Source: Patescibacteria group bacterium (lineage in GTDB: Bacteria; Patescibacteriota; Minisyncoccia; Phycocordibacterales; UBA2100). Taken from it: a DNA stretch of 64,000 bases. The notes below the pieces were generated by a model. The model searched no databases. It was not told where the DNA came from and saw only the letters and a program-made list of their open reading frames with translations. Both the position numbers and the translations under genes were made by a program. Shown in pieces: positions 1,441-59,607 of this stretch. The number at the start of each line of letters is the position of its first letter. Position 1 is the stretch's first letter. The stretch covers positions 100,406-164,405 of the forward strand of contig JBBTSD010000001.1 of the NCBI GenBank assembly GCA_038064835.1. Reading direction: 5' to 3'.

Positions 1441-2182
1441 AAAGAGGTGGTGTGTCTTCTGATTTAGGTGATGTGCAGAGGAGGACTCCATAGACAGGTT
1501 GCTCGATACGCGGATCGAGTCCTAAAAGACGGATAACATAGGTGTCATCAAAACCACCCACTGGGCGTGTCATAATCCCCAGTGCGGTTCCTACAAGGGT
1601 AATATTTTGTGCCATGTGCCCCGTCTCAAGAAGGCCTAGAAGATAGGCAAAGTCTCCGTACCGTGCACTCGAACGGTCCCACACCGCTGTGAAAATAAGG
1701 ATGGTAGATGAAAGTGGCGTCATTCCGGTTCGGATTATGCGACGCATTTCAAAATCGTCTGGGAGATCCCAGAGATGTTCCAATGCGTGGTCGCGTGGGT
1801 GGTAGTGAAACACACCAGGTACTTTACCTTCGCGTACGAGACCGAGTATATATGTCTCGATAGGGTAGAGGGCGCCACCAGAGGGATAGGTGCGCGTTGG
1901 TTTTCTGTTTGTTTTTACACCAACCGCATGACCGAAAAGTGTACCGAGTTCTGTGTCAGTGAACGCGCGCGGAATAAGACATTCTCCGGCAGACATACGC
2001 GCGGCCAACACTTCGTCGAGGCGGGTAGTAAGTGGTACGGGATGAGGTAGTGCGATACGAGGCATGCGTGGATATTCCTTATGTTCCCCAGGTAATGCAC
2101 TATCAGAAGATTTGGTCAGTCCAGTGCGTAGAATCCGTGCTTTCCGGATTGATTGATGCACCTGTTGGATAAAACGAGTCAT
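1433..2182 (-). CDS. SagB-type (McbC-like) nitroreductase-fold dehydrogenase
   Basis: The 249-aa ORF carries a PSGGALYPIETY motif characteristic of SagB/ThcOx dehydrogenases. It overlaps the YcaO gene by 4 nt and the downstream gene by 8 nt, consistent with translational coupling. Confidence 0.65.
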   Translation of the reverse strand: MTRFIQQVHQSIRKARILRTGLTKSSDSALPGEHKEYPRMPRIALPHPVPLTTRLDEVLAARMSAGECLIPRAFTDTELGTLFGHAVGVKTNRKPTRTYPSGGALYPIETYILGLVREGKVPGVFHYHPRDHALEHLWDLPDDFEMRRIIRTGMTPLSSTILIFTAVWDRSSARYGDFAYLLGLLETGHMAQNITLVGTALGIMTRPVGGFDDTYVIRLLGLDPRIEQPVYGVLLCTSPKSEDTPPLYE

Positions 2183-3645
2183 GCAAAGGGATGGGGTTCG
2201 TTTGTATAGGGCTCACTTCGCACTCTAAAGCCGAGTCGTTTCGGAACATCGTGTATGCGAGCTCCTCCGATAGGAGGTGTTGCTTCAGTGTAGTGAATAG
2301 GGATTAGCTCAGGAATCACCACCATTTCAATGTGCCAGGGTGTATGGTTTGCTCGGGCTTGAGTAAATGAAACTGACGCGCACTCGTACCCTTGCTCGCT
2401 GCACCAGTGGATAATACGGTCGAGATGCTGTTGCGGTGAATCGCTATCCCATATTTCTGGGCGAAGTGGTTGCTCTTTTCCTGACAAAAGAAATTGCAGG
2501 TGTTTGTGGCGGTCTGCCTGTGCCCAATAGACGAGACGATTACGCTGTCCTGTGTGTCGCACTGTGGCTATGGGGCGACCTTTCCTCTCGTATTTTCTTA
2601 TCTGAGCACGAGCCCCCCTCCTCGCTCGAAGAGCCTCGATAAGTGCCCGCTCAGCGGCGAGTGCGGGGTCACAATCCGACTTGAGGCCAAGGCCAAGTTT
2701 AGGGGCATGGGGCGTAAGGTCTTCCAAAAATGCACCAATGGAATATGTTGGCGCATCACTAACAAGGCGGATGAAATGAGGTTGTAGGCGGTATTGCTCG
2801 CAGAGTGCAACCAATGTAGCTAACGAAGGTCGGCGCTGAACAAGTTCGTGTGTAGGTATGCGCGGAGGTGTAATTTGGTTAAGCCAGGTAAGCATGTATG
2901 CGTCGCGTTCGATGACTTCCAGTGCACCCGAAAGAAGAGCGCATGACTTTTCAGGGTGTGTTGCAAGACCGGTGGTGATAGATGGCCGAATAATAGGCTC
3001 GCGCTGTTCGCCTATCCCACGGACAGCCAGGTTCATGCCGTATCGACTAATTGTTTGCGCAGGCAACCACACCATTTTTTTTGTAATAAGAGATGTTGCG
3101 CGTGTCCATAGAAATAGTGAATCGGATTGGATATGAAATCGTGGATCTTTTTTTCGCTGCTGAGGATTGAAGCTGGCAAAGCGGTCTGGTGTGAGTGCCG
3201 TGCCCTTCCTCTGGATTTCCGATACTGTTGCTCGGGTGGGGGAAACAAGCATGTCGCTCTGTGTAAACCAAATATAGCGTTCAGTTGCCTCCGCTAGTGC
3301 GCGACTAAATGCTGACCGTTCATCAGTTATGTCTCCACCTGCGGCGCGTACTGTGGCACCACCCTGGATATATTCCATGTACCAAAGAGCAAAAGGAGGT
3401 TCGTCCGGAGAATAGGGTGCCGGATAGTACAGTTTGGCAACTCCTGATGCAAACATTTTTTCGGCAATGGAAAAAAGGTCGAGCATGTCGGGACGACCAA
3501 AGGGTACCTCGCTGTCATCTTGGACAAGGTGCGCTCCGAACTGGCGTTCAAGAAATCGTAAGAAATTGATTCGTGCATGTTCAGTACGGTCGCCTCTATA
3601 AAGGCCACGCCAGACAGTCTCAAGGGAGTGGGCACTATGTATCAT
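2179..3645 (-). CDS. ycaO: YcaO-domain protein (ATP-dependent cyclodehydratase / amide-activating family)
   Basis: 488-aa protein with TGLATHPEKSCALLSGALEVIERDA (YcaO ATP-binding signature) and a C-terminal ...YTNEPHPFA proline-rich YcaO tail. Confidence 0.75.
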   Translation of the reverse strand: MIHSAHSLETVWRGLYRGDRTEHARINFLRFLERQFGAHLVQDDSEVPFGRPDMLDLFSIAEKMFASGVAKLYYPAPYSPDEPPFALWYMEYIQGGATVRAAGGDITDERSAFSRALAEATERYIWFTQSDMLVSPTRATVSEIQRKGTALTPDRFASFNPQQRKKDPRFHIQSDSLFLWTRATSLITKKMVWLPAQTISRYGMNLAVRGIGEQREPIIRPSITTGLATHPEKSCALLSGALEVIERDAYMLTWLNQITPPRIPTHELVQRRPSLATLVALCEQYRLQPHFIRLVSDAPTYSIGAFLEDLTPHAPKLGLGLKSDCDPALAAERALIEALRARRGARAQIRKYERKGRPIATVRHTGQRNRLVYWAQADRHKHLQFLLSGKEQPLRPEIWDSDSPQQHLDRIIHWCSEQGYECASVSFTQARANHTPWHIEMVVIPELIPIHYTEATPPIGGARIHDVPKRLGFRVRSEPYTNEPHPFA

Positions 3646-9309: not shown

Positions 9310-10770
9310 ATGAGCATGCGGTTTTTCCAAAGAATCCTTCTAAAAAAAGGTTGGCGTACTGATTGGATCTGGACGATGCGAATACTGTACCGACAGCCTT
9401 TTAGGCGGATACCATTTTATTTCGATACAAAAGCCCTTCTAAAAAGTCAGTATTGGCCTCGCGATGTATTGGAAACAATGACCTGGGCGCGTCTACAGAG
9501 TATGGTCTTGGCTACAGAACGGATTCCATTTTGGCGTACTGTGTTCACGCGAGTCGGCCTTGACCCACAGGATTTTTCCAAAAATGACTTTATAAAACTT
9601 CCGACGATGTCTCGGACAGATTTTAACGAGCAACCAATTGAACAAATCGCGAACATGACGCATATTAAAAAAAGTTCTGCAGACCGGACATCGGGTTCAA
9701 CAGGAAGACCGTTTCGTTTCTACTTTGACCGGGGTGCTTCCCTACGCTCCTTTGCAGTAACTGAGCGCATGTTGCAGACAGTTCTTGCAGGCACTCGGGT
9801 GCCGGTCATATCATTGCGCAGTAGGCCCAAGCTCGGGTTTTCTTTTTGGCGTCATTTTCTTTTTTTTGTAAGGAGTGGTACCGGTATTAAATATCGCATG
9901 AAAGAGTTTGAAAGATTTACAAAAAGACTTGGCGAGTCCTTCCTGCTCTATAGTTTCCCTTCATTTCTCATAGAATTTGCTGAGCAGGTTGAAAAGCTTT
10001 CCTTAAAATTCCCCATCAAAGTAGTGGTGGCAAGTGGCGAAAGTATACGCCCACAAGACAAGGAACGAGTTGAGTCAATTCTAGGTGCGCGCGTATGGAA
10101 TTGCTACTCTACTAGAGAGCTTGGTTTGGTTGCGTATGAATGCGAAGGAGGGAATATGCACAGTAACGAAGAATGGCTGTATTGTGAAATTCTCGACGAT
10201 CAAGGGAAAGAAGTACCGTTTGGGGAGATTGGGCGCATAATCGCGACAACACTAGACAATCGAGTCATGCCTCTGATTCGATACGATACGGGTGATCGCG
10301 GAACAATTTCGGATAAAGCTTGTCCCTGTGGACGCACGCTTCGCACCATCTCCTTCACAGGAAGAAGTGTAGAGTACATAAAATTGGATGGCGAGCGAGC
10401 GGTGCCTCTGCTCGAGGTTGCACCTTTGTTCGATGTGTTTTGGCGAGAGGTGAAACAGTATCAAATCATCCAGAAAACCAGGTCTTCATTTGTGGTGAAG
10501 GTTGTTCCGGGGTCGTCATTCGAATCAGTACAGGGTACTATTCAGGACAATTTCGTGCGAGCGTTGCATCCAAAAGTCACGATTGAATGGGAAGTTGTTG
10601 CGGAAATCCCTCCTGCACCAAGTGGCAAGGCACTGTATTTTATTGTGGCTAGTGAGGAGCAAAATGATAGGAAGCGAAGCGGACTTTCATTTTCTCCGAG
10701 CGACGACACAACGAAGGTCCATATCTCGCAGCCTCTGCAACAAGGACCTTCGTTTCCGATGTCTTCATAG
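9310..10770 (+). CDS. Adenylate-forming enzyme, phenylacetate-CoA ligase / CapK / F390-synthetase-like (paralog 1)
   Basis: SADRTSGSTGRPF (AMP-binding P-loop-like motif), YDTGDRG and a PaaK-like C-terminal region. Confidence 0.6.
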   Translation: MSMRFFQRILLKKGWRTDWIWTMRILYRQPFRRIPFYFDTKALLKSQYWPRDVLETMTWARLQSMVLATERIPFWRTVFTRVGLDPQDFSKNDFIKLPTMSRTDFNEQPIEQIANMTHIKKSSADRTSGSTGRPFRFYFDRGASLRSFAVTERMLQTVLAGTRVPVISLRSRPKLGFSFWRHFLFFVRSGTGIKYRMKEFERFTKRLGESFLLYSFPSFLIEFAEQVEKLSLKFPIKVVVASGESIRPQDKERVESILGARVWNCYSTRELGLVAYECEGGNMHSNEEWLYCEILDDQGKEVPFGEIGRIIATTLDNRVMPLIRYDTGDRGTISDKACPCGRTLRTISFTGRSVEYIKLDGERAVPLLEVAPLFDVFWREVKQYQIIQKTRSSFVVKVVPGSSFESVQGTIQDNFVRALHPKVTIEWEVVAEIPPAPSGKALYFIVASEEQNDRKRSGLSFSPSDDTTKVHISQPLQQGPSFPMSS

Positions 10771-10772
10771 AT

Positions 10773-12083
10773 ATGGGATTTCCTGTGATGCGATATGTGA
10801 GCGAGTGTGTTGCCTTCATGCGATTTCATATCCTACATCGTCGTTCACGCAAGGTGATTGAGAAATGGCAGACAGACAGGCTACGACGGTTACTCGTTCA
10901 TGCAGAAAAAAATGTACCACTATATAAAGAATTGATGGCGACACAAAACATCCGGGCTACGGACATCAGCACGCTTGAAAACCTCTCCTTTTTGCCAGTT
11001 ATCAACAAGAAAACATTTATTGGAAGGCAGGTTGTTGAATACACTGATGGCAGTCGACACCTTTCTGGTCAATGGGTAACAACATCAGGATCGAGCGGTG
11101 TTCCTTTTACAGCACTTCGACGAACCGAAGTACAAACACTGTGGTATGGGTACTCCCTCAACTCTCGGTTCCTGACATGGGAAATGCCGTGGCGTCTGAA
11201 TGCTGACTGGGCACGAGTGGCGCATATTCGTGTGCGCCCACGGGAACGAAAGAATCATTTATGGATTCCACTAGGCGCATTTTTGAACAATCCAAGGTCT
11301 TTATTACAGCAGATTGTCGATTTCAAACCCGATGTGGTTGAAAGTTTCGCATCAGTACTATATGTGTTAGCTCGCGAGGTTGATCGTTATGGAATTGTCT
11401 GGAAGCCGCGCTATGTGGTTTCAGGCGGAGAGCAATTGTCGCCGGCAGGGCGTCTTTTTATTGAAAACACACTGGGGTGCGAAGTGTACAACCGTTATGG
11501 TCTTGAAGAATTAGGCACAGTGGGCGTTGAATGCATGCAACATGACGGACTCCACATAAACTCCGAGTCGTTGATTGTTGAGATTGTTGACGAGAGTGGC
11601 GCAAGTGTGCCCGAAACAAATCACGGAAGAGTTATCATAACCGACTTGTTCAATACCAGCATGCCTTTTGTGCGCTACGACACAGGTGATCGAGGGCATA
11701 TGTCCTGGGCGCGTTGCGCGTGCGGATTGCGTGCACCCCGGTTGTGGATTGAAGGTCGTTACTCGACTTTTCTACAATTAGGAGATCAAACTTTTCATCA
11801 TTTCTATTTCTCATACACCCTGAAGCCATTCAAGAATCAAATTCTTCAATACCAAGTAGTAAAGCGTGCTGAAAATGACCTGCTTATCCGCATTATCCCG
11901 GGGTCTGCTTTTGGGGACGAAACAACAGTGGCTATTCAAAAAGAAATTGCCAATCTGGTTAAAGAGACAGCTTCGGTTCGTGTCGAGTGTGTTGCAGAAA
12001 TAAAACGAATGCCCCGGGGGAAATCTCAGGTTATCGTTGACGAAACGGCTGGCACTCAAAAACCAGATATTCTCAAACAATAA
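10773..12083 (+). CDS. Adenylate-forming enzyme, PaaK/CapK-like (paralog 2)
   Basis: TTSGSSGVPF and YDTGDRG motifs. It starts 3 nt after paralog 1. Confidence 0.6.
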   Translation: MGFPVMRYVSECVAFMRFHILHRRSRKVIEKWQTDRLRRLLVHAEKNVPLYKELMATQNIRATDISTLENLSFLPVINKKTFIGRQVVEYTDGSRHLSGQWVTTSGSSGVPFTALRRTEVQTLWYGYSLNSRFLTWEMPWRLNADWARVAHIRVRPRERKNHLWIPLGAFLNNPRSLLQQIVDFKPDVVESFASVLYVLAREVDRYGIVWKPRYVVSGGEQLSPAGRLFIENTLGCEVYNRYGLEELGTVGVECMQHDGLHINSESLIVEIVDESGASVPETNHGRVIITDLFNTSMPFVRYDTGDRGHMSWARCACGLRAPRLWIEGRYSTFLQLGDQTFHHFYFSYTLKPFKNQILQYQVVKRAENDLLIRIIPGSAFGDETTVAIQKEIANLVKETASVRVECVAEIKRMPRGKSQVIVDETAGTQKPDILKQ

Positions 12084-12411
12084 GTGAGCTTCACCATTGA
12101 GAAGGTCTGACCTTCTCAATGCGGCTAGCGAGGAGCGAAGTGATAGGAAGCGAAGCGGACTTTCACTTCGTCCGAGCGAAGACGCACTACAGGGTAGAAT
12201 ACCCTTTATTTTGACAGAAAGAGTCTCGCCATACAAAAACTTGCAAAGTCGTCTTCTTTCTGTATACTGCCCCACACATCCCTTCCCAGAAGGAATGTCC
12301 AAGTCCCTCATATGCATGGAGTAGCGAGAGGGACCAATGGTCGACATGGGTAACCATGCGCGCCATTGGCGCGCTGTTTTTCTAAACAAACAAAACCAAA
12401 AGACAAACACT

Positions 12412-34643: not shown

Positions 34644-34685
34644 CAGACCCCTGTTGACTAGTCCTCAAGGGAATATTCCAACAAG

Positions 34686-34709
34686 TTGTGCACAGGTGCG
34701 GACGGGCAG
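34686..34709 (+). repeat. 25-nt direct repeat, copy 1 (gttgtgcacaggtgcggacgggcag), upstream of mntA
   Basis: Identical except for 1 nt to 35771-35795. Both copies are followed by (ag)aaagtgc. Confidence 0.5.
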
Positions 34710-34766
34710 GGGGTGCGAGCAGAAAGTGCAATAGACTCAGCTCTTGTTTCGAGCTACGATACTCGA

Positions 34767-35180
34767 ATGAACGAAATGGATACTAAAACAATGGTGGATG
34801 CAGTGCGTCCGATTGCGGAGCGAGCGGGCCTTTCACTGGTCGTGCTTTTTGGCTCGTACGCAACAGGACGGGAGCATGCGCAGAGCGATACCGACATCGC
34901 TGTACTTGCTGAGAGGACTTTTTCACCCAGTGAGCTCGCGACGCTCGCGTACGAACTTTCACAGAATCTCAAGAATTCCTCCATAGACATCTCCGATCTA
35001 CGCACGGGGTCGCCACTTCTGCTGCGTACCGTCGCGCATGATGGAATCGTTTTGTTTGAAAGAGAGCCTCATGCGTTTGCCCTCTTTCAGATGTACGCAT
35101 TCAAGCGTTTTGTGGAAGCGAAACCTCTGAGAGATTTGCGTAGGGCATCGCTCGAACAATTTGTTGCACCAACACTATGA
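34767..35180 (+). CDS. mntA: Minimal nucleotidyltransferase (MNT) antitoxin
   Basis: LFGSYATGREHAQSDTDIAV (GS...DxD Pol-beta-type NTase motif). Start at ATG 34767, because the listed TTG extension would cover the upstream repeat. Confidence 0.65.
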   Translation: MNEMDTKTMVDAVRPIAERAGLSLVVLFGSYATGREHAQSDTDIAVLAERTFSPSELATLAYELSQNLKNSSIDISDLRTGSPLLLRTVAHDGIVLFEREPHAFALFQMYAFKRFVEAKPLRDLRRASLEQFVAPTL

Positions 35181-35599
35181 TGGACATCGCCATTCTCGAA
35201 AGCAAGCTTGCCGACCTTCAGGCGTTTTACAAAGAAATCGTCGTCATAGTATCGGAAGACTCTCTCGACATTATTGCCGACTCACTCAAGCTCCACAGTG
35301 TCGAGAGACTTTTCCAGCTCATTGTCGATACGGCTATTGATATAAACACACATATCATAAGCACCTCAAATGGGGCGGTACCTGATGACTACCAAAGTAC
35401 ATTTATGGTACTTGCCGAAAGAAACATTCTTCCAAAAGAGTTTGCACTACGAATCGCACCATCAGTCGGATTACGAAATCTCGTGGTGCATCGTTACGGA
35501 AAAGTGGACATAAAACGCATGATCGAAGACATCAAAAAGGAGATTGGGCAGTACCAGGAGTATGCAAGGTACATCGTTTCTCATCTTCACCGAGAGTAG
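35177..35599 (+). CDS. hepT: HepT / DUF86 HEPN-domain toxin
   Basis: RNLVVHRYGKVD (Rx4HxY HEPN motif). 4-nt overlap with mntA. Confidence 0.65.
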   Translation: MMDIAILESKLADLQAFYKEIVVIVSEDSLDIIADSLKLHSVERLFQLIVDTAIDINTHIISTSNGAVPDDYQSTFMVLAERNILPKEFALRIAPSVGLRNLVVHRYGKVDIKRMIEDIKKEIGQYQEYARYIVSHLHRE

Positions 35600-35616
35600 C
35601 TACTCACAGGGTTTAT

Positions 35617-35705
35617 CAAGAGGCCACCAGAAGTAAGGTTTCTGGAGTGCACTCCAAGGCCGTTAGGCCGGTCTTACACTCCAGAAACCTTACTTCTGGT
35701 GGCCT
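35617..35705. repeat. 89-nt near-perfect hairpin (about 30-bp stem) immediately after hepT
   Basis: aggccaccagaagtaaggtttctggagtg-cactccaaggccgttaggccggtcttaca-ctccagaaaccttacttctggtggcct. Confidence 0.5.
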
Positions 35706-35770
35706 TTACTCAGTGGTGAGAGGGGTTTCCGCCGAGAATCTTGACGCCCCAGTCTCTTGTTTTCCAGCCT

Positions 35771-35795
35771 GTTGTGCACAGGTGCAGACGGGCAG
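35771..35795 (+). repeat. 25-nt direct repeat, copy 2 (gttgtgcacaggtgcagacgggcag), downstream of hepT and the hairpin
   Basis: See copy 1. Confidence 0.5.
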
Positions 35796-36069
35796 AAAGT
35801 GCTACCATTTTTACAGGTGAGGGCATTGAACCTGCTTGGCGATTATAGGGAGCTCCAAGGAAGATGCATGCCGTGGTATGCACCCCGGGCACCCACCTGT
35901 CACAAAGATCAGGCGTCACTATGCTCCACCTCGAGAGGGCCCCACTCTGTGCGCGAGTATCGCGAGCAGGGTGGGGCCCTTTCCTTTATCTACACCCACC
36001 TTGGCTCTTCCACATGTTCCTGTTAGGGTGTGATTAGACAAAGTGCTTCTTGGCACATAGGATGGGAAG

Positions 36070-36543
36070 ATGACGAAGCGATTGTTTTTCGCCGGTACGA
36101 GTATACTTGTGCTTACGCTCGCGGTGCATCTCTATGCCCAGACAGGCAAGCTTTACTGGCAGGTATGGTGGCTCGATATACCCATGCATTATTTCGGAGG
36201 CATCGGGGCGGGATTCTTTGGGCTCTGGTTCGCGTCTCTCTTGGGTGTTCTTCCGCGCACGGGCGATGCCTCTAGTACGCTCTGGGGTGTTGAGATTCGA
36301 TTTCCACAAGGTGTGCCACGGTGGTGGTCTTTACTGTGGACACTGATTGCGGTTGCAATCATCGGCATCGGGTGGGAGATGCTCGAAGTATTTCTCCTGG
36401 CCTATTTCGATAAACCTATCCCTTTTGGCTACATTGAAGACACACTGAAAGATCTTGTTATGGATACTCTTGGTGCAACTACTGCCTGGGCGGCTTTTCA
36501 TCGTGTACAATGGCAGGCATGGTTGTTGCGGGAGGCACACTAA
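36070..36543 (+). CDS. Small integral membrane protein
   Basis: 157 aa with 4 predicted TM helices. Confidence 0.4.
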   Translation: MTKRLFFAGTSILVLTLAVHLYAQTGKLYWQVWWLDIPMHYFGGIGAGFFGLWFASLLGVLPRTGDASSTLWGVEIRFPQGVPRWWSLLWTLIAVAIIGIGWEMLEVFLLAYFDKPIPFGYIEDTLKDLVMDTLGATTAWAAFHRVQWQAWLLREAH

Positions 36544-53400: not shown

Positions 53401-53451
53401 TTTTTTTGTCCGACAAAGTAAAAACACCCGCTTGCGCGGATGTTTTTACTT

Positions 53452-53617
53452 TGTGGAGATGGCGGGAATTGGTCACCAGTATTTTTCCTGACGGAAAAAT
53501 CTCGCGACCCCGGCTCGCGGTTTTTGCCTTTCCTACGCGTTGCTCCGGAAAACAAAAACAACGCTGCGCCTTTCAATTCCCGTCGAAAGGTGCGCAGGCA
53601 CCTTTCTCCATCTCCCC
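53452..53617 (-). ncRNA. Truncated tandem ssrA-like copy (tmRNA-like 5' domain plus duplicated 3' acceptor end and terminator)
   Basis: Minus strand 5'-GGGGAGATGGAGAAAGGTGCCTGCGCACCTTTCGACGGGAATTGAAAGG... (tmRNA 5' motif UUCGACGGGA) ... CCAATTCCCGCCATCTCCACA-3'. The last 50 nt, including terminator aaaaacatccgcgcaagcgggtgttttt, are near-identical to the main ssrA 3' end. The T-stem is not complementary. Confidence 0.4.
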
Positions 53618-53655
53618 ATACGCAAAAACACCCGCTGGCGCGGATGTTTTTACTT

Positions 53656-54045
53656 TGTGGAGATGGCGGGAATTGAACCCGCGTCCAAAGGAGGAGTAGC
53701 TGATCGGTGTACACAAGGTAGTTCATTTGATTTTGTTTAAACGCAGGATGTGTGAAATGAGCAAAATCATCACGCGTCGAGCTTTCTTTCTTTAGTCAGT
53801 ATCTTGAAGCATCAGACACTGACGAATCCGGCATATATGACATGTACGGCATCTTGTCGGATGAAGATGAGTACACGGCCGCTTAGGCTAATGCGTAAGC
53901 GAAGCTGAGATCTTTCACCTGAATCGGTGAAAGGAACCCCCGTGCGGTTTTATTTGCACTTAGATTTTGAACAGTTTAAAGAAGATGTTCACTTCTCTTG
54001 TGCCTTTCAAGCTCTCGAATCTCCCTGTCGAAGCCAATCATCCCC
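53656..54045 (-). ncRNA. ssrA: tmRNA (SsrA), standard one-piece form
   Basis: Minus strand 5'-GGGGAUGAUUGGCUUCGACAGGGAGAUUCG... and 3'-...GGACGCGGGUUCAAUUCCCGCCAUCUCC-A. The acceptor stem GGGGAUG/CAUCUCC has G3-U70. The T-arm is GCGGG-UUCAAUU-CCCGC. Both ends closely resemble the E. coli tmRNA ends as recalled. An internal frame ...DLSFAYALA-UAA (stop revcomp at 53883-53885) is a plausible tag. smpB lies 0.6 kb upstream on the same strand, and a terminator follows at 53625-53652. Confidence 0.7.
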
Positions 54046-54176
54046 CGTGAGATACCAAATCTGTTGTGCGTTGAGTCTCGAGCATAACGGTAATGTGTGT
54101 TCTCTTTTACTCTGCATTATGTCGGGCTTACGAAGTCCGACAGGTTGTTTAATATCTCATGGGGAAGGACTCGCTA

Positions 54177-54205
54177 CCATGTTGGACTTCGTAAGTCCAA
54201 CATGG
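54177..54205. repeat. Perfect 13-bp-stem hairpin ccatgttggactt-cgt-aagtccaacatgg (GGACTT...AAGTCC family)
   Basis: Related hairpins at 54121-54141 (gtcgggcttacgaagtccgac), 54599-54619 (gttcgactt-cgt-aagtcgaac) and 39521-39533 (gggactttagtcc). Confidence 0.5.
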
Positions 54206-54534: not shown

Positions 54535-54598
54535 TGCAAACACTCCTTGGTTCACTTGGTTGCCACACTTAAGCATTCGTTTATTGTCAAAAATCTAT

Positions 54599-54619
54599 GT
54601 TCGACTTCGTAAGTCGAAC
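54599..54619. terminator. Hairpin of the GGACTT..AAGTCC family immediately after the smpB stop; likely the smpB terminator
   Basis: gttcgacttcgtaagtcgaac. On the minus strand it is followed by atagattttt. Confidence 0.45.
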
Positions 54620-59338: not shown

Positions 59339-59384
59339 TTACTTGTTTGTCAGTATATAGTTGATGGCGTAGAGTGTACGCACT

Positions 59385-59607
59385 GCGCCCGTAGCTCAAT
59401 GGTAGAGCGCTAAGCTTACTGTGGCTAACGAGCGTCGATTGAAAATCTGTGTGGGCGCATAGCTCAATGGTAGAGCGCCAAGCTTATACCTTGGTGGTTC
59501 TAGGTTCGAATCCTAGTGCGCCCACACAGATTTTCAATTCGCGCGAGTAACGACACAGGATTGAAAATATACCTTAGTGGTTCCAGGTTCGAGTCCTGGC
59601 GGGCGCA
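59385..59607 (+). tRNA. tRNA-Val(UAC)-like gene split by a 151-nt insertion in the anticodon loop (5' part 59385-59419; 3' part 59571-59607)
   Basis: 5' GCGCCCG-TA-GCTC-AATGGTA-GAGC-G-CTAAG-CTTAC | ... | AC-CTTAG-TGGTT-CCAGG-TTCGAGT-CCTGG-CGGGCGC-A. Acceptor, D, anticodon and T stems are all fully complementary across the insertion. Confidence 0.45.
59453..59524 (+). tRNA. Complete tRNA with anticodon UAU (tRNA-Ile(UAU)-like), nested inside the split tRNA
   Basis: GGGCGCA-TA-GCTC-AATGGTA-GAGC-G-CCAAG-CTTATAC-CTTGG-TGGTT-CTAGG-TTCGAAT-CCTAG-TGCGCCC-A, a canonical cloverleaf. Flanked by a 17-18-bp inverted repeat (59436-59452 / 59525-59541). Confidence 0.6.

Follow-up and report, generated by a model that had tools for sequence, protein, structure and literature searches.

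The Locus and Its Flanking Repeats

The movement of chromosomal toxin-antitoxin (TA) pairs that lie alone between housekeeping genes is, to our knowledge, poorly understood. Here, we analyze one such pair, mntA-hepT, and the direct repeats that bracket it, in a stretch of 64,000 nucleotides (nt) from a Patescibacteria group bacterium (assembly GCA_038064835.1, contig JBBTSD010000001.1, positions 100,406 to 164,405 of the forward strand), which is called the window hereafter. An identical sequence is contained in contig CAYHZP010000001.1 (330,809 bp), which belongs to assembly GCA_964361175.1. On the upstream side of the TA locus there is a housekeeping run of genes for guanylate kinase, adenylate kinase, methionine aminopeptidase, a DUF8128 ATPase of 944 amino acids (aa), nucleoside diphosphate kinase (NDK), and a lineage-specific protein of 288 aa, and on the downstream side there are genes for a DUF2238 protein, a beta-CASP RNase, and others. 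Two homologues of the 288-aa protein are labeled Candidatus Kaiserbacteria by their sources, which places the uncultured host of the window, from groundwater-type samples, in the candidate phyla radiation (CPR; Patescibacteria).

Table 1. Features of the TA locus in the window (upper rows), and best alignments between the upstream and downstream flanks of mntA-hepT in the window and in six related contexts (lower rows, numbered within each contig).
Feature	Positions	Strand	Description
Direct repeat, copy A	34676..34729	+	54 nt: TTCCAACAA, 25-mer core, 13-nt tandem unit, AAAGTGC
TA core promoter (putative)	34732..34760	+	TAGACT 34732-34737, 17-nt spacer, TACGAT 34755-34760, 6 nt to the mntA ATG
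mntA	34767..35180	+	137 aa, minimal nucleotidyltransferase antitoxin, GSx10DxD motif = GSYATGREHAQSDTD
hepT	35177..35599	+	140 aa, HEPN RNase toxin, Rx4HxY motif = RNLVVHRY
Hairpin	35621..35705		85 nt; arms 35621-35649 / 35677-35705, 29 nt, 100% complementary, 27-nt loop
Tail between hairpin and copy B	35706..35761	+	56 nt, right end of the repeat-enclosed segment
Direct repeat, copy B	35762..35802	+	41 nt: TTCCAGCCT, 25-mer core 35771-35795, AAAGTGC
Structured non-coding stretch, target side	35806..35990	+	z = -5.2; ends in a 24-bp hairpin (35933-35983) and a T-rich run
Flank alignment, window	34676-34709 / 35762-35795		score 48; 30/34; intergenic
Flank alignment, L024	1921-1993 / 3112-3186		score 114; 68/75; plus second block 20/21
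Flank alignment, L026	1703-1813 / 2684-2790		score 85; 84/111; 3' end of nusG
Flank alignment, L027	770-805 / 1775-1810		score 67; 35/36; 3' end of SecA-like open reading frame
Flank alignment, L022			score 24; no repeat, noise level
Flank alignment, L038	2054-2078 / 2915-2940		score 28; 23/27; borderline, one copy at each of two stop codons
Flank alignment, L029			score 19; no repeat, noise level

Judged by its domains, motifs, and gene order, the pair is a genuine MntA/HepT system (type VII TA), as an earlier sequence-only reading of this DNA had claimed. MntA matches PF18765 (Polbeta NTase, E 1.8e-16) and PF01909 in Pfam and, by sequence, the solved MntA structures 5YEP_A, 6M6U_A, and 7AE2_B; HepT matches PF01934 (E 2.6e-22) and the solved HepT structures 7AE9_A (4e-14), 7AE6_A, and 5YEP_B, and the catalytic motifs are present in both proteins. 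The antitoxin gene comes first, and its stop codon overlaps the start codon of hepT in ATGA (35177-35180). According to the literature on this family, MntA neutralizes the growth-arresting HepT RNase by poly-AMPylating a tyrosine (PMC8138530, PMC7641770). The pair resembles SO_3165/SO_3166 of Shewanella (PMC4621449, PMC7641770) and the Aphanizomenon system (7AE8/7AE9) in its antitoxin-first order, in the gene overlap, and in the GSx10DxD and Rx4HxY motifs, but differs from them in the small size of both proteins, in a promoter that is apparently leaderless, and in belonging to a lineage that is known from sequence alone.

The genes are bracketed by two copies of a 25-mer, GTTGTGCACAGGTGC(G/A)GACGGGCAG, at 34685-34709 and 35771-35795, which are identical at 24 of the 25 positions. 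When up to three mismatches are allowed, the 25-mer has exactly two matches in the 64 kb window, compared with 0.00 in 100 shuffles. The sequence-only reading had reported both copies, placing the start of the first one at 34686 instead of 34685, and had each of them followed by AAAGTGC. This heptamer does end both copies (34723-34729 and 35796-35802), but in copy A it comes only after an extra 13-nt tandem unit (GGGCAGGGGGTGC-GAGCAGAAAGTGC, 34710-34722). The similarity also outruns the 25-mer on its left side, with the pattern TTCCA.C.. preceding it, so that 30 of 34 positions match between 34676-34709 and 35762-35795. Beyond 34676-34729 and 35762-35802, no similarity above shuffled controls was found on either side, and the edges of the repeat are therefore sharp. 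Copy A begins 32 nt past the stop codon of the 288-aa gene. Independent public assemblies carry copy A, copy B, and the hairpin without any mismatch.

The segment enclosed by the repeats (34730-35761) measures 1,032 nt, and mntA and hepT are the only genes inside it. No terminal inverted repeats linking its ends were found. No recombinase or transposase family was detected by Pfam among 14 other open reading frames (ORFs), i.e., the immediate neighbors and ten ORFs at 38.9-63.7 kb, which are only part of the ORFs of the window.

Searching for further copies of the 25-mer, as had been proposed, gave only these two in the window and none from this lineage in the collections scanned. In GTDB species genomes and in JGI metagenomes, neither of which holds the source genome, the repeat core had one match each. 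Both matches (L015:4193-4214 and L016:1010-1031) are the same actinobacterial leader, 24 nt of which are identical, upstream of a gene for a LuxR-type response regulator; no Rfam family matches this leader. We judged the similarity to be due to chance, as about 0.3-0.6 matches are expected for 21 specified bases in GC-rich genomes. Searches of IMG/VR with the repeat and with the hairpin arm gave no match, and Rfam, queried with the repeats, the hairpin, and the stretch 35806-35990 at gathering scores and at E up to 10, returned only noise in the form of miRNA models that fit a generic hairpin. The repeat was also considered as a promoter, and no convincing match to sigma-70, extracytoplasmic function (ECF)-type, or sigma-54 patterns was obtained.

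Recurrence of Flanking Repeats in Related Contexts

Six further independent contexts of the TA pair were compared with the window, their HepT proteins being 56-73% identical to that of the window and to one another. In each context, the 450 nt upstream of mntA were aligned to the 450 nt downstream of hepT by the Smith-Waterman algorithm, and the scores were compared with those of shuffles, which reached maxima of 25-28 for the window, L024, L026, L027, and L022 and of 28-30 for L038 and L029. As listed in Table 1, flanking repeats are highly significant in four of the seven contexts (36-111 nt) and borderline in one, and there is none in the other two. The significant repeats lie 981-1,224 nt apart; their sequence differs at every locus and is local each time. 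When the same geometry was slid along the window and five unrelated loci, a score of at least 40 was reached at only 1 of 233 positions, which is the TA locus itself, and hence at none of the 232 non-TA positions. The repeat of L024 is found identical in L025, an independent assembly from another sample.

The settings of the cassettes are all different and of housekeeping character: NDK and the 288-aa gene, ribosomal protein S10 and an AbiE pair, secE-nusG, a SecA-like gene, GtrA, and an amino-acid kinase. The related cassettes sit directly behind the upstream gene or within its last codons. A search for further cassette contexts in IMG/VR with a HepT profile found none. From the sequences compared, flanking by long direct repeats is specific to this TA lineage and recurs within it, each repeat being made of local sequence. 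This recurrence with local sequence, together with the clean controls, therefore points to an insertion footprint, unlike what would be seen for a conserved regulatory site.

In L024, an AbiEii gene with a small adjacent ORF, its possible antitoxin partner (L024:860-1826), adjoins the TA cassette, and two addiction/defense modules thus stand side by side behind ribosomal protein S10.

The left boundary of the module was located by means of the promoter. The closest HepT relative is found in L022, another Kaiserbacteria metagenome-assembled genome (74% identity by BLASTP, 73% by global alignment), in which the 25-mer, any flanking repeat, and the hairpin are all absent. When the upstream regions of the window, L022, and L026 are aligned, the hexamer ATAGAC is invariant and is followed by a 17-nt spacer, TAnnAT, and an ATG 6-7 nt further, and no conservation is seen upstream of the promoter in this alignment. 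As the promoter is shared and nothing is conserved upstream of it, the conserved module begins at 34730, one base past the end of copy A.

Repeat Copies That Derive from Gene Ends

In two of the related contexts the repeat is coding, which gives information on the origin of its copies. Copy 1 in L026 comprises the last 91 nt of nusG and 18 nt more, and copy 2 begins at the stop codon of hepT. There are 20 mismatches in the coding part, 17 of them at third codon positions, and the peptide encoded by copy 2 is identical at 28 of 29 residues, its stop codon lying at the same place, whereas the copies differ by indels in the 18 non-coding nt. Under neutral drift about 46% of the changes would be expected at third positions, the probability of the observed bias being roughly 4e-4 by a binomial estimate. 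Similarly, copy 2 in L027 can still be read in frame as the C-terminus of the SecA-like gene, down to its stop codon, and the replacements are conservative. The third-position bias and the maintained frame and stop codon indicate that these copies diverged like orthologues and are therefore not a decayed duplicate; on this sequence evidence, the two copies in L026, and likewise those in L027, had each been functional gene ends, evolving in separate lineages, until they were joined.

Two origins fit this pattern: one repeat copy may have come along with the cassette out of an earlier host, or a diverged allele may have taken the place of the resident gene, as far as the insertion boundary, at a later time. 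In both cases, recombination between lineages at the cassette edge is implied. The gene order secE-nusG-rplK is near-universal, which implies that the cassette was inserted at L026. The differing origins of the repeat copies in two related loci offer a testable handle on the transfer of cassettes between species.

Probable Insertion with Long Target Duplication

In our opinion, the 25-mers are probably the cores of about 41 nt of duplicated local intergenic DNA that bracket an inserted TA cassette of about 1.03 kb, which has no mobility gene of its own. The observations behind this explanation are the repeat geometry with its sharp edges, the end of copy A coinciding with the start of the promoter region, the recurrence at unrelated sites, and the distinct origins of the copies in two relatives; the insertion mechanism and the way in which the duplication arises we infer. 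The segment 34730-35761, which would have been inserted behind the 288-aa gene, comprises mntA-hepT and the putative promoter of the pair, followed by the terminator-like hairpin and the short tail, and it would have landed between the 288-aa gene and its original terminator. The duplication could have arisen by fill-in of widely staggered breaks, by Campbell-type single-crossover integration of a circular cassette carrying one repeat copy, or, once DNA has been taken up, by homology-facilitated illegitimate recombination. The cassette might then be excised or amplified when the two repeats recombine. The earlier suggestion that the TA module was acquired as a unit is supported by the repeats recurring in four (possibly five) of seven contexts versus none of the 232 control positions, and by copy A ending where the module starts.

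A precedent exists for restriction-modification (RM) genes, for which Furuta, Abe and Kobayashi (2010, PMC2853133), after Nobusato et al. (2000, Gene 259:99), described "insertion with long target duplication". The RM insertions, which have no other mobility genes with them, lie between direct repeats that exceed 30 bp (46 to about 420 bp) and are found at no other genomic site; the repeats often overlap the 3' end of a neighboring gene, and most cases are from naturally competent species (PMC2853133). The same authors suggested a possible role for DNA breaks made by the restriction enzyme and proposed that the repeats permit amplification, and a later review ascribes this mode of insertion to RM systems only (PMC3874152). 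The TA locus is alike in being a small, selfish "addiction" pair without transposase or integrase, flanked by a local repeat that is longer than 30 bp, has no further copies in the DNA examined, often lies over the 3' end of the upstream gene, and varies in length from locus to locus. As in the RM cases, the window holds a complete gene system inside an insert of less than 20 kb, with no mobility genes in it and with a repeat longer than 30 bp (41 nt in copy B and 54 nt in copy A). It is unlike them in its cargo, an RNase/nucleotidyltransferase TA pair, and in its host, a CPR bacterium; moreover, the copies in L026 and L027 differ like orthologues, whereas RM copies are near-identical. These comparisons support regarding the TA pair of a CPR bacterium as an added member of the genes inserted with long target duplication, so far described for RM systems. 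Given that the cargo is an RNase toxin and a nucleotidyltransferase, the model of breaks made by the cargo does not transfer, and a host-driven route seems more likely than cargo-driven breaks.

A 34-nt direct repeat (31/34, L022:1153-1186 / 2039-2072) also surrounds a lone lysE-family gene in L022 (1314-1925, minus strand). It may represent another instance of insertion with long target duplication in this clade and hints that the insertion route may not be limited to TA pairs.

Several observations weigh against insertion with long target duplication. Two of the seven contexts, L022 and L029, hold the TA pair without the repeat; the sequence-only reading had named relatives without repeats, together with a 25-mer occurring only here, as speaking for a coincidental duplication. 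Significant repeats do occur in L024, L026, and L027. The comparison set is small (seven contexts) and was picked by HepT similarity and contig size, not by systematic sampling. An empty site, which that reading had proposed to look for, was not found: all 9 and all 10 contigs with exactly the flanking proteins carry the TA pair, except one that is probably chimeric, and the relatives of the 288-aa gene (at most 56% identity) have no conserved synteny, those in P0001, P0002, and P0011 being followed by unrelated genes. The GC content is flat across the locus and gives no compositional sign of foreign origin. The 25-nt core is conserved at 24 of 25 positions versus 6 of 9 in the 9 nt to its left, which could reflect selection on a functional site and leaves room for a function of the core as a crossover or att-like core or as a binding site. 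Finally, only 64 kb of the genome were examined, and further copies of the repeat may be present elsewhere in it.

A variant that we hold as possible, but rather doubtful, is that the repeat is itself part of the mobile unit, which would be a recombinase-free, homology-guided cassette carrying a host gene end or an intergenic piece as a portable "address". A circle would exit by recombination between the two repeats and, after DNA uptake, enter the orthologous site of another CPR species by a single crossover, toxin addiction then protecting the insertion; such moves across species would have left the orthologue-like divergence seen in L026 and L027.

We think that insertion with long target duplication is of interest beyond this locus. 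The same footprint around an RNase-type TA pair in minimal-genome CPR bacteria suggests that host processes, and not the cargo, create the duplication, the candidates being DNA uptake, homologous or illegitimate recombination, and gap repair. In addition, a long local direct repeat with copies about 1 kb apart around a gene pair can serve as a signature for recently acquired defense/addiction modules in metagenome-assembled genomes.

Alternative Explanations

The repeats might instead be att-like sites of a recombinase encoded elsewhere, so that the TA pair would be a non-autonomous, cis-mobilizable cassette between attL and attR sites with a 25-nt core. A near-perfect core with weaker arms (24/25 vs 6/9) is what such sites would look like, the tmRNA gene of the same window has an att-like duplication at its 3' end, and the repeats of L026 and L027 consist of the 3' end of a conserved gene with a displaced copy of other origin, a pattern of elements that carry a replacement end. 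In the gene-3'-end repeat, the displaced far copy, and the two origins, L026 and L027 indeed resemble genomic islands in the 3' ends of tRNA, tmRNA, or protein genes and cis-mobilizable elements (CIMEs). Unlike these, however, the insert is only about 1 kb long, contains no integrase, and occupies a different site in each lineage. There is no recombinase between the repeats or among the ORFs screened, the repeat lengths range from about 25 to more than 110 nt, and both repeat and target differ in each of the seven contexts, which means that a new specificity would be needed each time. The description of the repeats as att-like, made from the sequence alone, thus fits only loosely, and we consider this explanation unlikely.

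No likelier, in our view, is that the 25-mer is a functional DNA or RNA site, for instance one that MntA/HepT or some other regulator would use as operator or activator site, lying upstream of the TA promoter and of the structured RNA/DUF2238 region. The core contains the palindromes TGTGCACA and GCAC-NN-GTGC and is better conserved than the left edge, and the MntA of Shewanella binds its own promoter region, which bears palindromes at -10 and -35 (PMC4621449). In the window, however, 22 nt separate the end of the 25-mer from the -35 hexamer downstream, and the 25-mer does not lie over -10 or -35, as the bound palindromes of Shewanella do. None of L022, L024, L026, and L027 has the 25-mer, whereas the core promoter is kept in the window, L022, and L026, and the lack of the 25-mer in L022, the closest TA relative, despite the shared promoter argues against an operator owned by the TA pair. 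In addition, the repeats of the related cassettes are unrelated in sequence and some of them are coding, no further copy occurs in the 64 kb or, from this lineage, in the collections scanned, and a reading of the sequences found no common RNA fold kept by both copies. The proposal that the repeats are duplicated MntA/HepT operators is thus not sustained: they lie upstream of -35, are lacking in the closest relative with a conserved promoter, and differ in sequence in each lineage. The candidate analogue of the Shewanella palindromes is here, by comparison, the palindrome AGCTC-N7-GAGCT (34739-34755) in the promoter spacer, and not the 25-mer.

We consider it very improbable that the TA pair came to lie by chance between copies of a pre-existing dispersed repeat of the repetitive extragenic palindromic (REP) kind, or beside an unrelated local duplication. 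Chance insertion between repeated sequences is a class listed by Furuta et al. (PMC2853133), and the genome has several small families of repeated intergenic hairpins, but the 41-mer does not form a strong hairpin and occurs only twice in the 64 kb, the end of copy A falls exactly on the cassette boundary, and the geometry recurs in relatives with gene-derived repeats and at none of the 232 control positions. TA pairs are common integron cassettes, and a structured inverted repeat following ORFs is what an integron-type gene cassette would have if the hairpin were its attC site. The probability of this is practically negligible: the stem is perfect, without extrahelical bases or RYYYAAC/GTTRRRY boxes at its base, the repeat begins with GTTGTGC, which does not fit GTTRRRY, there is neither a cassette array nor an integrase among the ORFs screened, and the hairpin is absent in the related cassettes. 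A DNA transposon or miniature inverted-repeat transposable element (MITE) was also rejected, as no inverted repeat joins the ends of the insert and the duplication measures 41 nt versus the expected 2-15 bp.

Promoter, Hairpin, and Downstream Stretch

The hexamers TAGACT and TACGAT, we infer from the sequence, work as a promoter with a leaderless start at 34767. The same promoter geometry is seen for the DUF2238 gene (TAGACA-17-TAGGAT, 36035-36063, with the ATG at 36070). In mntA (34732-34769), DUF2238 (36035-36072), and the mntA genes of L022, L024, L026, and L027, a -10-like hexamer stands 6-7 nt before the ATG and there is no Shine-Dalgarno sequence, which suggests leaderless transcripts in these Kaiserbacteria-like genomes.

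The hairpin begins 22 nt past the hepT stop codon. Folded as RNA it has 31 pairs over about 89 nt, with a free energy of -75.9 kcal/mol and z = -9.3. The hairpin of 89 nt described before is real, with a perfect stem of 29 bp over 85 nt in the DNA, but the earlier view of it as a defining part of the cassette is not supported. It is absent from all six related contexts and is therefore not cassette-defining. Other long hairpins (19-29 bp, no clear T-tracts) follow several genes of the window, some of them forming small repeated families, and a terminator-like or REP-like role is therefore the simplest reading. Most likely, the hairpin would act as operon terminator or 3'-end stabilizer, outside the insertion machinery. 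Like the REP-like and terminator hairpin families, it is long, stable, and placed just after a gene; unlike them, it has a perfect 29-bp stem and no clear T-tract, and only two copies are inferred, the second from contig breaks and one probably chimeric contig.

In several sequencing runs the contigs break inside the hairpin: left contigs end at 35663 (L001, L004, and L005), right contigs start at 35663 (L018 and L021), and one starts at 35633. The assemblies concerned presumably use k = 31. As the arms measure only 29 nt and no 30-mer of the hairpin region recurs on either strand, the hairpin alone cannot break such a graph. Inversion of the hairpin loop (flip-flop) was rejected as the cause, since the breaks would then sit at the inner arm ends and not at 35663. 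The terminal 31-mers, 35633-35663 and 35663-35693, are mirror images about the hairpin center, which fits a second sequence in the same samples that would share exactly 35634-35692 (the inner 16 bp of stem and the loop) and differ at 35633 and 35693. In L020, a contig of low coverage, groES on the other strand and a spacer of about 170 nt (1-345) join the window sequence at 35634. The 20 nt before this junction, compared ungapped and in register with the left arm of the window, are identical at 12 positions, and all 8 mismatches are transitions; neither the comparison of the upstream part of L020 with the repeats nor a gapped alignment of the 80 nt left of the junction was significant versus shuffles. 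L020 is probably a chimera across the shared 59 nt, because it carries a window-type right arm. These breaks would point to a family of hairpins with two or more members, the second of them beside groES, either within this genome or within a strain that occurs together with it. There is no groES in the window, and a search with a 48-aa GroES fragment found nothing.

On the target side of copy B, the structured stretch 35806-35990 matches no Rfam family. It could represent the 3' region or the terminator that the 288-aa gene originally had, a small RNA, or a long 3' untranslated region upstream of DUF2238.

Other Repeats in the Window

A 52-nt direct repeat (98%) is present at 53420-53471 and 53624-53675, the second copy overlapping the 3' end of the tmRNA gene (53655-54045, minus strand), and each copy holds a hairpin (53413-53454 and 53617-53658). 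The repeat resembles an attL/attR scar left by an element formerly integrated at tmRNA, of which only about 150 nt would remain between the copies. Between the tmRNA gene and smpB there are three copies of a 23-nt palindromic motif (ATGTYGGACTTCGTAAGTCCRAC-like; 54119-54141, 54179-54201, and 54597-54619).

A 67-nt repeat (87%; 10644-10710 / 12120-12186) around the gene at 10773-12083 was considered as a target duplication and rejected, for it is a hairpin element after two tandem paralogues. This REP-like element follows each of the two, whose proteins are only 28% identical. The gene for tRNA-Ile with anticodon TAT (59453-59525) lies inside a perfect 22-nt inverted repeat (59438-59459 / 59517-59538), which would extend the acceptor stem, and a 35-nt copy of its 5' half (89% identical, 59384-59418) is found 68 nt upstream.

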